Below are positions 2,593 to 58,295 of a stretch of 64,000 nt of DNA, in pieces. The notes beneath the pieces were generated by a model. The model ran no database searches and was not told the origin of the DNA. It was given only the letters and a program-made list of their open reading frames with translations. The stretch is from Shigella phage ESh32, in the sequence record ON528742. One strand, written 5' to 3'. Positions within the stretch are counted from its first letter, which is position 1. Every line of letters begins with the position of its first letter. The translations under genes were made by a program, and so were the position numbers.

Positions 2593-2622
2593 GTTTACTT
2601 TTCCTCTTGACTGTGGTATAAT
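2593..2622 (+). promoter_or_regulatory. T4-type early promoter (GTTTAC -35, TATAAT -10, 18-nt spacer)
   Basis: ctgtttac...ctgtggtataat immediately upstream of regB. Confidence 0.6.
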
Positions 2623-2649
2623 TTTTCTATCAGTTAAGAGGAGAACAAC

Positions 2650-3111
2650 ATGACTATCAATACAGAAGTTTTTATCCGTCGAAATAAGCTTCGTCGTCAC
2701 TTTGAGTCGGAGTTTCGTCAAATTAACAATGAGATTCGTGAAGCATCAAAAGCAGCAGGAGTCTCATCGTTTCATCTAAAATATTCTCAACATCTTCTTG
2801 ATCGTGCAATTCAACGGGAGATTGATGAGACATATGTTTTTGAATTATTCCATAAAATAAAAGACCATGTTTTAGAAGTTAATGAATTCCTGAGTATGCC
2901 TCCGCGTCCTGACATTGACGAGGATTTTATTGATGGGGTTGAATATCGTCCTGGACGTTTAGAAATCACAGATGGAAATCTTTGGCTTGGATTTACGGTT
3001 TGTAAACCTAATGAGAAGTTCAAAGACCCGTCACTTCAATGTAGGATGGCAATTATCAACAGTCGTCGTTTACCAGGAAAGGCTTCTAAAGCAGTAATTA
3101 AAACTCAATGA
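2650..3111 (+). CDS. regB: RegB site-specific endoribonuclease
   Basis: 153-aa ORF matches remembered T4 RegB (MTINTEVFIRRNKLRRHFESEFRQ...); AAGAGGAG RBS. Confidence 0.8.
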   Translation: MTINTEVFIRRNKLRRHFESEFRQINNEIREASKAAGVSSFHLKYSQHLLDRAIQREIDETYVFELFHKIKDHVLEVNEFLSMPPRPDIDEDFIDGVEYRPGRLEITDGNLWLGFTVCKPNEKFKDPSLQCRMAIINSRRLPGKASKAVIKTQ

Positions 3112-3118
3112 GGTAAGC

Positions 3119-3664
3119 ATGAGAAAAGCACTACTCGCTGGTCTATTGGCCATTTCAATGATGGCACATAGCTCCGAGCATACTTTCAGTAATGTCCAAC
3201 TCGATAACATGCGTTACGCGTATCAATTCGGGGAACAATTTTCTAAGGATGGAAAATATAAAACACACAAAAATATCCACAAGAGCGGATTAGGTCATAT
3301 AATGGCTGCTATTTTATGGCAAGAAAGCTCTGGCGGAGTTAATTTAAAATCTAAACCAAAGCATCACGCTTATGGAATGTTCCAAAATTATTTGCCTACT
3401 ATGCGAGCAAGAGTTAAGGAACTTGGTTATAATATGACCGATGCTGAAATAAAAAGAATGTTGAATAAACGGTCCAATTCAGCTTCCTGGGCGTACATTG
3501 AACTTTCTTATTGGTTAAATATACATAAGGGCGATATAAGAAAAGCAATATCCTCTTATAATTCGGGATGGAATGTTAAAGCTGGTTCTAAATATGCTTC
3601 TGAAGTCCTAGAAAAGGCTAATTACCTTAAAAATAATAAACTTTTGGAAATAGTAAATGACTAA
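3119..3664 (+). CDS. secreted lytic transglycosylase-like protein (SLT-like)
   Basis: N-terminal signal peptide MRKALLAGLLAISMMAHS; WQESSGG and YGMFQ motifs resembling SLT catalytic region. Confidence 0.55.
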   Translation: MRKALLAGLLAISMMAHSSEHTFSNVQLDNMRYAYQFGEQFSKDGKYKTHKNIHKSGLGHIMAAILWQESSGGVNLKSKPKHHAYGMFQNYLPTMRARVKELGYNMTDAEIKRMLNKRSNSASWAYIELSYWLNIHKGDIRKAISSYNSGWNVKAGSKYASEVLEKANYLKNNKLLEIVND

Positions 3665-3998
3665 AATTTTGGTTTTATGTATAGGATTAATTTCATTTTC
3701 TGCGTTAGCAGATACATCATATACTGAAATTAGAGAGTATGTAAACCGCACTGCGGCAGATTATTGTGGGAAAAATAAAGCATGCCAAGCTGAATTTGCA
3801 CAGAAATTAATATATGCATACAAAGACGGAGAAAGAGATAAATCAAGCAGATACAAAAACGATACATTATTAAAACGATATGCTAAAAAGTGGAATACCT
3901 TAGAATGTTCAGTTGCGGAGGAGAAAGATAAAGCCGCTTGTCATTCAATGGTTGACCGTTTGGTAGATTCTTATAATCGAGGATTGAGTACTAGATGA
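3657..3998 (+). CDS. hypothetical secreted protein
   Basis: 113-aa ORF with signal peptide MTKILVLCIGLISFSALA; ATG overlaps upstream stop. Confidence 0.5.
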   Translation: MTKILVLCIGLISFSALADTSYTEIREYVNRTAADYCGKNKACQAEFAQKLIYAYKDGERDKSSRYKNDTLLKRYAKKWNTLECSVAEEKDKAACHSMVDRLVDSYNRGLSTR

Positions 3999-4462
3999 TT
4001 GTAAAATATATCAAGGGCGATATTGTCGCCCTTTTCGCTGAAGGTAAAAATATTGCGCATGGATGCAATTGTTTTCATACGATGAAAGCAGGAGTCGCAG
4101 GTCAATTAACTAAAGCTTTTCCTAAAATTTTGGAAGCTGATAAATTACAGACTGAATGGGGTGATGTAACTAAACTTGGTTCTTATTCAGTTTATGAAAA
4201 ATACTTTAGGACTCATAAAGCTTACTGCTTTAATCTTTATACTCAATTTCAACCAGGGCCAAATTTTGAGTATTCCGCTTTAATGAATTGTATGTTAGAA
4301 TTAAATGAGTTTGGTGAAAATAAACTGATTAAACCTACAATCTATATGCCTAGGATTGGTGCAGGCATAGGTAAAGGGAACTGGGATATTATTGAGGGGA
4401 TTTTAGATACATATTCTTCTAAATTAGAAATTGTGATTGTTGATTGGGAACCATTATTATGA
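3995..4462 (+). CDS. macro-domain-like protein (possible ADP-ribose binding/hydrolase)
   Basis: IKGDIVALFAEGKNIAHGCNCFHTMKAGVAGQL and PRIGAGIGKGNW resemble macro-domain glycine-rich motifs. Confidence 0.5.
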   Translation: MIVKYIKGDIVALFAEGKNIAHGCNCFHTMKAGVAGQLTKAFPKILEADKLQTEWGDVTKLGSYSVYEKYFRTHKAYCFNLYTQFQPGPNFEYSALMNCMLELNEFGENKLIKPTIYMPRIGAGIGKGNWDIIEGILDTYSSKLEIVIVDWEPLL

Positions 4463-4671
4463 AAGTACATTATCCACATCCATATGACCCAAAGAATAAG
4501 GCAGTAATTATTCGTCAATGGGAACGCATTTGTCGTACTAAATGTCCAATTAATAGTCCACATGATGTAGATAAAGACTACATTGGAACATTCGTTGAAT
4601 ATACCTTTATTGATAAGAAAGGTCGTAAACAGCATGTAGAAGAATACTGCTTAAAGGTTACATGGTTATGA
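4459..4671 (+). CDS. hypothetical protein
   Basis: ORF 4444..4671; ATG at 4459 overlaps upstream TGA. Confidence 0.5.
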   Translation: MKVHYPHPYDPKNKAVIIRQWERICRTKCPINSPHDVDKDYIGTFVEYTFIDKKGRKQHVEEYCLKVTWL

Positions 4672-4874
4672 GCCAAACTAGTATTCTTAAAAATGCCCAC
4701 TGTGAAAAGTGTAAATGGCCGGTTGTTTTTGCTTTATGTAATGATGAAATGGCTTGTGGTTTCGATTATTGGTGCTATTGTTCTAATAAAGGATGCATCA
4801 ATCATAAAGGTGAAGGATTTTATTCGGGATTTTATCCTTATCCTGATTTCGTTAAAGAAGGTAAACCAAAATGA
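4662..4874 (+). CDS. cysteine-rich small protein
   Basis: 70-aa ORF with CxxC...C...CxC...C pattern. Confidence 0.5.
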   Translation: MVMSQTSILKNAHCEKCKWPVVFALCNDEMACGFDYWCYCSNKGCINHKGEGFYSGFYPYPDFVKEGKPK

Positions 4875-6084: not shown

Positions 6085-6378
6085 ATGGCCTTAAAAGCAA
6101 CGGCACTATTTGCCATGCTAGGATTGTCATTTGCTTTATCTCCATCGATTGAAGCGAATGTCGATCCTCATTTTGATAAATTTATGGAATCTGGTATTAG
6201 ACATGTTTATATGCTTTTTGAAAATAAAAGCGTAGAATCATCTGAACAGTTCTATAGTTTTATGAGAACGACCTATAAAAATGACCCGTGCTCTTCTGAT
6301 TTTGAATGTATAGAACGAGGCGCGGAGATGGCACAATCATACGCTAGAATTATGAACATTAAATTGGAGACTGAATGA
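6085..6378 (+). CDS. rI: lysis-inhibition regulator RI
   Basis: 97-aa ORF MALKATALFAMLGLSFALSPSIEANVDPHF... with N-terminal signal-anchor; matches remembered T4 RI. Confidence 0.8.
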   Translation: MALKATALFAMLGLSFALSPSIEANVDPHFDKFMESGIRHVYMLFENKSVESSEQFYSFMRTTYKNDPCSSDFECIERGAEMAQSYARIMNIKLETE

Positions 6379-38124: not shown

Positions 38125-38505
38125 ATGAAAATCGCTATTTTGGTTATTGCATTAGGTCTTACTGGTTGTGTGGCTCAAGGACCGGTAGTAAATCAGTCTG
38201 ATGTAGGAAAAATTGTAAACTGTTCAAGCAAATTTTATAATCCTAATGTCAAGTGTTATAAAGAAGCTCCAAATCAAACAGTCGAACAAATGCAGGCGAA
38301 TTTTGACGAAGCTATTCGTCCAGATGAATCTGCTCAAGCATATCGTAATTCTGATGTAATTACACGCGAAGAAAAAATTGAAAACTACTGCGCCGAGCTT
38401 TGGGCTAATTGGGCTAATAATTACCAATGGCGTACTGGTAAAAATGCTCCGATGGAGTATGTAGTGAATTCTTATAATTCATGTGTAAAAAATTTGACTA
38501 AGTGA
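38125..38505 (+). CDS. lipoprotein
   Basis: signal peptide with lipobox LTGC; ATG at 38125 (track ORF starts at TTG 38113). Confidence 0.55.
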   Translation: MKIAILVIALGLTGCVAQGPVVNQSDVGKIVNCSSKFYNPNVKCYKEAPNQTVEQMQANFDEAIRPDESAQAYRNSDVITREEKIENYCAELWANWANNYQWRTGKNAPMEYVVNSYNSCVKNLTK

Positions 38506-44089: not shown

Positions 44090-44383
44090 ATGAAAAAATT
44101 TGTTTTTGCTGCAATTTTTGCTTTAGCTTCTTGTGCTGCTCAGCCTGCTATGGCAGGTTATGATAAAGATTTGTGTGAATGGTCTATGACTGCGGATCAG
44201 ACTGAAGTTGAAACTCAGATTGAAGCAGATATTATGAATATCGTTGAGCGTGATCGCCCTGAAATGAAAGCTGAAGTACAAAAACAGCTTAAGTCTGGTG
44301 GTGTAATGCAGTATAATTATGTTTTGTATTGCGATAAAAACTTTAATAACAAAAATATCGTAACTGAAATCACAGGTGAATAA
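44090..44383 (+). CDS. sp: spackle periplasmic protein Sp
   Basis: 97 aa with signal peptide; position between 41 and 61. Confidence 0.7.
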   Translation: MKKFVFAAIFALASCAAQPAMAGYDKDLCEWSMTADQTEVETQIEADIMNIVERDRPEMKAEVQKQLKSGGVMQYNYVLYCDKNFNNKNIVTEITGE

Positions 44384-58034: not shown

Positions 58035-58295
58035 ATGAAATATGTTAATCGTTCTATCGCAGCATTAGTATTAGCAGTATCTTTAGTAGGATGTACTGAT
58101 GCTGATAATGCAACCAAAGTTTTATCTTCAAGTGGTTTTACTAATATTGAAATCACTGGATATAATTGGTTTGGTTGTTCTGAAAATGATTTCCAACATA
58201 CTGGATTTCGTGCTATTGGACCTACTGGGCAGAAAGTAGAAGGAACCGTGTGTTCTGGTCTATTCTTCAAGGATTCGACTATCCGTTTTAAATAA
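58035..58295 (+). CDS. lipoprotein
   Basis: ORF 58026..58295 (GTG); ATG at 58035; lipobox LVGC. Confidence 0.5.
   Translation: MKYVNRSIAALVLAVSLVGCTDADNATKVLSSSGFTNIEITGYNWFGCSENDFQHTGFRAIGPTGQKVEGTVCSGLFFKDSTIRFK

Follow-up and report, generated by a model that had tools for sequence, protein, structure and literature searches.

The vs.1-vs gene pair of Shigella phage ESh32: a predicted exported SLT-fold enzyme and its putative exported partner in T4-like phages

Results

The vs.1-vs locus

In this study, two adjacent open reading frames (ORFs) of Shigella phage ESh32 were analyzed within a window of 64,000 nucleotides (nt), which is the whole stretch of DNA examined (sequence record ON528742; one strand, 5' to 3'). 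An earlier note, made from the letters alone, had described a pair of secreted proteins encoded directly after the endoribonuclease gene regB, the first resembling a soluble lytic transglycosylase (SLT). The two consecutive ORFs lie exactly as described (3119..3664 and 3657..3998, after regB at 2650..3111), and they are the named genes vs.1 and vs of phage T4. The product of the first is 100% identical to T4 ORF 61.4 (= vs.1; UniProt P13311), and that of the second is about 97% identical to T4 Vs (UniProt P13310; ORF 60.9), annotated in the records as "valyl-tRNA synthetase modifier". A megablast search with positions 2600-4500 matched 656 phage records; the top ones were NBEco003 (99.9%) and RB51/RB68 (99.0%), all Tequatrovirus. 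The best of these records are annotated regB, vs.1, vs, and tk.4, and T4 has the same order and sizes. The features of the locus are as follows (lengths of proteins in amino acids, aa).

3119..3664, + strand: vs.1 coding sequence; 181-aa precursor of an SLT/GH23-fold enzyme, predicted to be exported
3657..3998, + strand: vs coding sequence; 113-aa precursor; phrog_1256, E 5e-40; 97% identical to T4 Vs
3657..3664, + strand: vs.1/vs overlap of 8 nt; vs ATG at 3657, vs.1 TAA at 3662-3664
2594..2622, + strand: early-promoter-like site 5' of regB; GTTTAC-type -35 and TGnTATAAT extended -10; 10/12 matches, with the TG, in a consensus scan
2650..3111, + strand: regB endoribonuclease gene; Pfam REGB_T4, E 8e-69; phrog_1323
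3995..4462, + strand: tk.4 macrodomain gene; Pfam Macro; 4-nt overlap with the vs stop

The promoter-like site at 2594-2622 probably drives regB-vs.1-vs-tk.4. The Shine-Dalgarno sequence of regB contains the RegB target GGAG (at 2640), whereas that of vs.1 is GAGG (3111-3114) and lacks GGAG; further GGAG sites are internal (3335, 3828, 3917, and 3920). No clear Shine-Dalgarno sequence was seen for vs when the sequence was read directly. Because of this and the 8-nt overlap, vs is likely to be translationally coupled to vs.1. Downstream, T4 tk.4 was renamed adfM in a 2025 preprint and counters the DarTG2 defence system. Four ORFs lie between tk.4 and tk in the window and three in T4; phage JS10 likewise has an extra ORF here. 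A 70-aa Cys-rich ORF is located at 4662-4874, between the tk.3 and tk.2-like ORFs.

Vs.1 as a predicted SLT/GH23 enzyme

The ESSGG...YGMFQ arrangement, which the earlier note had compared with the catalytic motifs of SLT enzymes, was present (YGMFQ is encoded at 3371-3385) and proved to belong to a real SLT signature. In a hidden Markov model (HMM) search, the check that the note had proposed, Vs.1 matched Pfam SLT (PF01464) above the gathering score (25.1 bits versus 21.3; E 1.4e-5). A precomputed PF01464 match was also found in nine Vs.1 homologues.

3299..3580, + strand: SLT domain core; residues 61-154 (Pfam match), with the four family-1 motifs
3323..3325, + strand: codon of Glu69, the predicted catalytic acid/base; invariant in 31 close and 8 distant homologues

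The four motifs of the family-1 lytic transglycosylases, reportedly those of Blackburn and Clarke, appear in Vs.1 as WQE69SS, YG86MFQ89N, SY147N148AG150W, and KY159ASEV163, and their key residues are invariant among the 31 homologues. Glu69, Gly86, Tyr147-Asn148-Gly150, and Tyr159 are also invariant in the 8 distant homologues, which come from Acinetobacter, Aeromonas, Klebsiella, Kuttervirus, Felixounavirus, and Vibrio phages. Glu69 aligns with Glu478 of Slt70 (505 in the precursor) and Glu64 of MltE in local hhalign alignments, which are without significance and serve for residue mapping only. The AlphaFold model of Vs.1 (pLDDT 88) has a lysozyme-like all-alpha fold with a substrate groove, and Foldseek agrees on the SLT fold with modest E-values. 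In PHROGs, Vs.1 falls in phrog_600 (unknown function), with weaker matches to lytic tail and endolysin families; NCBIfam holds no model for Vs.1 or Vs. The predicted mature protein has 163 aa, 18.8 kDa, a pI of 9.65, and no Cys. The 31-homologue alignment contains no conserved second acidic residue after Glu69, from which we would only infer that transglycosylase chemistry fits Vs.1 better than that of a hydrolytic lysozyme. Thus, Vs.1 is predicted to be a signal-peptide-bearing SLT/GH23 enzyme that cleaves murein.

The SLT resemblance of vs.1 is already known and has been in print since 2003-2006; a passage of Nolan et al. (2006; PMC1524935) presents it as corroborating earlier PSI-BLAST matches for T4. 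Homologues are named "Transglycosylase SLT domain-containing protein" in UniRef and several GenBank records. A literature search found no report of an assay of Vs.1. The lack of any reported activity in the papers found, together with the weak Pfam score, would be compatible with a catalytically dead murein binder, in which the SLT fold serves only for docking on the sacculus. However, phages as far apart as T4 and those of the Vibrio and Felix types share, without variation, Glu69 and the residues of all four motifs of the catalytic groove. Such invariance is hard to explain without catalysis, and a dead enzyme is therefore highly improbable.

Vs.1 differs from the family-1 lytic transglycosylases of Escherichia coli (the Slt70 catalytic domain, MltE/EmtA, MltC, MltD, and MltF; GH23), with which it shares only 13-20% identity. 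It is phage-encoded and made early, and consists of a bare domain behind a predicted cleavable signal, with no lipobox, LysM, or superhelical domains. It also carries a family-specific N-terminal helix, FSxxQLDNxxYAYxFGEQ, in which Gln27, Asn30, and Gly38 are invariant (31 homologues).

Predicted signal peptides and export

Both ORFs begin with a predicted signal peptide, as the earlier note had held.

3119..3172, + strand: predicted Sec signal peptide of Vs.1; residues 1-18, cut between AHS and SEH (hydropathy, -3/-1 rule)
3657..3710, + strand: predicted Sec signal peptide of Vs; residues 1-18, cut between ALA and DTSY (hydropathy, -3/-1 rule)

The N-terminus of Vs.1 is MRKALLAGLLAISMMAHS followed by SEHT, and that of Vs is MTKILVLCIGLISFSALA followed by DTSY, with the predicted cut after residue 18 in each. 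Both consist of Met, Lys/Arg, 13-15 uncharged hydrophobic residues, and a small-x-small site, and so show the basic n-region, the h-region of 7-15 uncharged residues, and the small -3/-1 residues of a Sec type I signal. The AlphaFold models assign low confidence to residues 1-18 of both proteins and place them apart from the folded domain. The pattern is kept despite divergence of the N-terminal sequence in 31 Vs.1 homologues, 8 very distant Vs.1 homologues, and 43 distinct Vs homologues. A signal-like N-terminus was found in 44 of 47 Vs.1 ORFs, the remaining 3 being start-codon artefacts of the longest-ORF rule; it was found in all downstream Vs ORFs (47/47) and in every distinct family member (43/43). 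The signal peptide of the window's Vs is two residues shorter than that of T4 (113 versus 115 aa; SASA followed by DT in T4), and the small-x-small site is retained. Thus, an SLT match and predicted cleavage sites, whose absence the earlier note had said would speak against it, were both found.

A lipobox (LSG/C) is present in one Vs clade, found on contigs of about 165-172 kb, whose N-terminus is MKKLFVLLVVFALS followed by GCK. These homologues are L062, L066, and L077 (at about 3549-3875) and L063 (2495-2821); a possible lipobox (VSS/C) was also seen in the Vs.1 homologue of L075. In some phages, the pair may therefore be lipid-anchored.

In the window, the rule-based scan flags 13 of the 190 ATG-initiated ORFs of at least 50 aa, the antiholin gene rI among them. 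Another of the 13 is a 97-aa ORF at 44090-44383 with the signal-like N-terminus MKKFVFAAIFALASCA followed by AQPAM, which we take to be T4 Spackle, the periplasmic inhibitor of gp5 lysozyme. Lipoprotein-like N-termini occur in the ORFs 38125-38505 (...LGLTG/C...) and 58035-58295 (...VSLVG/C...), which may encode further envelope proteins. The signal of rI (6085-6378, 97 aa) is experimentally cleavable (PMC8385771); the cut called by the rule falls before the experimentally reported Ala24 site, and the limits of rule-based calls of cleavage sites are therefore evident.

The N-terminus of Vs.1 also bears on the reading that this protein is an accessory lysis enzyme, held in the inner membrane by a signal-anchor-release domain or inactive until holin triggering, and acting late beside lysozyme E. 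Ala, Gly, and Ser abound in the h-region of Vs.1 (ALLAGLLAISMMA), as they do in such domains. A passage of Nolan et al. (PMC1524935) suggests "some role in cell lysis", and the Felixounavirus homologues are annotated "putative lysin" and located a few genes from the spanins. However, Vs.1 combines a hydrophobic stretch of just 13 residues with a good small-x-small site behind it, as is typical of cleavable signals; T4 RI, formerly held to have an anchor of this kind, has a cleavable signal (PMC8385771); and vs.1 is early, not late. Since insertions in gene e have very low reads and vs.1 is non-essential, Vs.1 cannot replace E, and a function as the main endolysin was ruled out on the same grounds. 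An accessory role in late lysis is accordingly improbable.

Pairing and distribution of vs.1 and vs

Vs.1 was found by tblastn in 2045 phage records, which include T4-like phages of many genera, Kuttervirus (Ackermannviridae), Felixounavirus, and one Vibrio phage. Neighbours of the Vs type were searched for with an HMM, built from a wider Vs alignment and scanned over the fetched loci. Of the 47 IMG/VR contigs retrieved with the Vs.1 alignment, all have a Vs-type ORF directly 3' of vs.1. In 46, this ORF starts -8 to +3 nt from the stop codon of vs.1, and in the remaining contig it is split. All 22 contigs retrieved with Vs have the -8 to +3 nt spacing, as do JS10 and Acinetobacter phage DLP3; the DLP3 ORF matches the enterobacterial Vs profile in hhalign (86% probability, E 5e-6). 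The pair is retained in Acinetobacter phages in which regB is not adjacent, and the Vs family, always after vs.1, also occurs in Acinetobacter, Pseudomonas, Proteus, and Erwinia phages. Slopekvirus carries its Vs-like ORF farther away, 1.2 kb downstream of vs.1.

Some lineages differ. In the Felixounavirus ESCO50 (L004, 3001-3549), the Vs.1 homologue, a "putative lysin", comes right after rIIA-rIIB, and no Vs was detected. In the Kuttervirus Se-B (L005, 76-693), it is the first gene of the record, again with no Vs partner detected. In an Aeromonas phage, vs.1 still follows regB. In Acinetobacter phage vB_AbaM_DLP3 (L006, 2474-4320), vs.1, the Vs homologue, a 141-aa ORF, a 99-aa ORF, and rI are consecutive; all five have signal or membrane-anchor N-termini and form a compact predicted envelope cluster.

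Expression and phenotype in T4

In T4, vs.1 and vs are represented by early RNA and "middle" protein, and both proteins were detected in infected cells (PMC9697503 supplement). The early expression supposed in the earlier note agrees with this early RNA and with the early-promoter-like site 5' of regB. Chance ORFs were ruled out, both proteins having been detected by mass spectrometry and being conserved.

Both genes are non-essential in the HIDEN-SEQ preprint (10.1101/2025.11.20.689424), where 46/52 sites were hit in vs.1 and 30/32 in vs. Between LB and M9, the mean transposon reads of vs fell from 26.6 to 5.0 (log2 fold change, log2FC, -2.19; adjusted p 0), and those of vs.1 fell from 22.6 to 11.9 (log2FC -0.87; p 0.0055, adjusted 0.155). 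The flanking genes have 179 (regB), 290 (tk.4), and 652 (vs.3) reads in the same sheet; vs.1 and vs thus show 7-30 times fewer reads than their neighbours in liquid LB. The low reads in LB and the further drop in M9 indicate that loss of either gene carries a mild cost in liquid LB and a worse one in minimal medium. This shared phenotype fits a common function of the two genes.

The Vs protein family

The predicted mature Vs has 95 aa and 11.0 kDa, and the precursor has 12.9 kDa. It is modeled as a four-helix bundle (AlphaFold pLDDT about 96 over residues 20-110). Four Cys (C37, C43, C84, and C95) are invariant across the family. They lie at the turns of the two helix hairpins, where helices 1 and 3 end and close to where helices 2 and 4 begin. 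A signal together with four such Cys is the pattern of an extracytoplasmic protein that would be stapled by disulfides. The protein matches phrog_1256, and all its relatives carry PF26829. Vs occurs in at least 795 phage records (tblastn). Its appearance as a tiny family, with 6 clusters in a word-indexed search and 8 representatives in an exhaustive profile search, was rejected as an artefact of sensitivity on the basis of tblastn and the HMM scans.

The description of the pair as secreted proteins holds insofar as signals are predicted on both, and Vs is likely to be mainly periplasmic; the second protein is nevertheless the annotated valyl-tRNA synthetase modifier, a point absent from the earlier note. 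The predicted features (signal, lipobox clade, and four Cys) do not agree with the cytoplasmic location that binding of valyl-tRNA synthetase implies. On the alternative reading, Vs is cytoplasmic and binds the host synthetase as annotated, while Vs.1 is an exported SLT enzyme acting alone. Either the Vs N-terminus would then be an inefficient signal, or the active form would be the precursor or a fraction remaining in the cytoplasm, and the adjacency would reflect tight packing of unrelated early genes. The modifier name is universal in the records, loss of vs hurts T4 specifically in minimal medium, as would fit a translation-related role, several phage lineages have Vs.1 but no Vs, and T4 early genes generally overlap, vs and tk.4 included. 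The predicted size of 11-13 kDa is also compatible with the factor of about 10 kDa that Marchin and co-workers reportedly described in the 1970s; with 11.0 kDa predicted for the mature protein and 12.9 kDa for the precursor, however, size is not decisive.

Several observations disagree with a cytoplasmic Vs. Its signal-like N-terminus is kept in all 43 distinct members despite divergence, its first 18 residues are outside the predicted fold, one clade has a lipobox, and four invariant Cys occur in a small helical protein. The family also occurs in Acinetobacter, Pseudomonas, Proteus, and Erwinia phages, and there too always follows vs.1. Full-length His-tagged Vs was insoluble in the E. coli cytoplasm, where it formed inclusion bodies; the paper makes no mention of a signal peptide (PMC8076793). 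The 1986 record of Valerie et al. gives the gene only as "ORF 60.9", which indicates that the name vs was attached later. A purely cytoplasmic Vs is thus regarded as rather unlikely.

Annotation errors are widespread in both families. Vs.1 homologues are labeled "endoribonuclease" or "site-specific RNA endonuclease", a spill-over from the adjoining regB, and vs is labeled "valyl-tRNA synthetase" without "modifier".

Discussion

The family-wide signal of Vs, its lipobox clade, its invariant Cys, and its locked adjacency to vs.1 point to a co-exported periplasmic pair. It is probable that Vs.1, as an exported SLT enzyme, and Vs, as its exported partner, constitute a conserved periplasmic module of T4-like phages. 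In the proposed mechanism, an early transcript from the site at 2594-2622 would yield RegB, Vs.1, Vs, and Tk.4. The 181-aa Vs.1 precursor would be exported by Sec and cut after residue 18 to a soluble, basic periplasmic enzyme of 163 aa, which would attack the murein of the infected cell itself at the MurNAc-GlcNAc bond, Glu69 serving as its only catalytic acid/base. Vs, coupled to vs.1 in translation, would likewise be exported, as a four-helix bundle stapled by two Cys pairs. As a best guess, Vs would restrain or direct Vs.1, possibly through contact between the two, so that the sacculus is loosened or remodeled without premature lysis. The module would be an accessory, non-essential fitness factor, whose benefit is quantitative and dependent on growth conditions.

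Candidate processes for the module are wall loosening before lysis, envelope adaptation in lysis inhibition, murein turnover, and defence against competitors; the rI or rII neighbours in several lineages give only a hint in this respect. Superinfection exclusion and cell-wall remodeling, which the earlier note had offered as roles, are guesses, and no present result specifically favours superinfection exclusion.

Several known systems invite comparison. SLT enzymes of the EtgA, VirB1, and IpgF type are tied to an envelope-spanning machine, for which they open a local gap, whereas Vs.1 is not known to work with a machine of this kind. EtgA possesses an additional, lysozyme-like Asp; in contrast, the 31-homologue alignment shows no conserved acid in the beta-hairpin of Vs.1. 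The SLT domains of phiKZ gp144, T7 gp16, and phi6 P5, which are virion-associated or part of endolysins, do their work from the virion during entry or at lysis, whereas Vs.1 carries a predicted signal peptide and is made early in the infected cell. For Vs, an analogy is provided by Spackle (gp61.3), which acts on gp5 lysozyme, and by Ivy, PliG, and MliC: Vs would be a small exported protein, synthesized early or encoded together with its target, that possibly controls a periplasmic murein-cleaving enzyme. The loop C37-x5-C43 of Vs, which a disulfide would close, recalls the Ivy loop. As with vs, the partner gene immediately follows the enzyme gene in type VI effector-immunity pairs such as Tse3-Tsi3. 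No similarity of fold or sequence was found between Vs and Spackle, Ivy, PliG, MliC, or Tsi3; in contrast to such effector-immunity and inhibitor pairs, Vs.1 occurs without Vs in some phages, and inhibition by Vs is an analogy only.

A number of points weigh against a co-exported pair of this kind. The Pfam score of Vs.1 exceeds the threshold by only 4 bits; sequence and profile searches of Vs.1 against Protein Data Bank (PDB) chains gave nothing usable, as did a sequence search of Vs against them, and sequence cannot separate the chemistry of a lytic transglycosylase from that of a hydrolytic muramidase. The export signals were called by a simple rule-based scan, and the cleavage sites are predictions of the same rules. 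The four Cys of Vs could instead form a zinc site in a cytoplasmic protein. In Kuttervirus, Felixounavirus, Aeromonas, and Vibrio phages, vs.1 occurs without Vs, and no conserved charge complementarity exists between the two proteins (Vs has pI values from 4.4 to 9.0, and Vs.1 is always basic). Polarity of vs.1 insertions on vs fits the shared transposon phenotype equally well. Work of the 1960s and 1970s reportedly defined vs genetically, with a product of about 10 kDa that is said to stabilise valyl-tRNA synthetase, including in vivo; such action in vivo argues for a cytoplasmic Vs.

Co-export of Vs with Vs.1 conflicts with a cytoplasmic role on valyl-tRNA synthetase. An inefficient export signal, two locations, or a gene name placed on the wrong ORF are possibilities for this conflict. 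It is possible, at clearly less than even chances, that the functional label of Vs is wrong or incomplete. We tentatively propose that the PF26829 family comprises exported, disulfide-stapled periplasmic partners of Vs.1, with vs misassigned or the synthetase association not its main site of action. The family-wide evidence for export of Vs and its lock to vs.1 have apparently not been remarked upon before.

In sum, Vs.1 would be the third murein-cleaving protein of T4 and the only one with a signal peptide, and its conservation extends over more than 2000 phage records from several families. The role of valyl-tRNA synthetase modification has been a puzzle for about fifty years. If the product of vs is the exported partner of a cell-wall enzyme, this old question becomes testable by simple experiments; and, if this is true, the label on hundreds of genomes, including those of Acinetobacter, Pseudomonas, and Proteus phages, would need revision.

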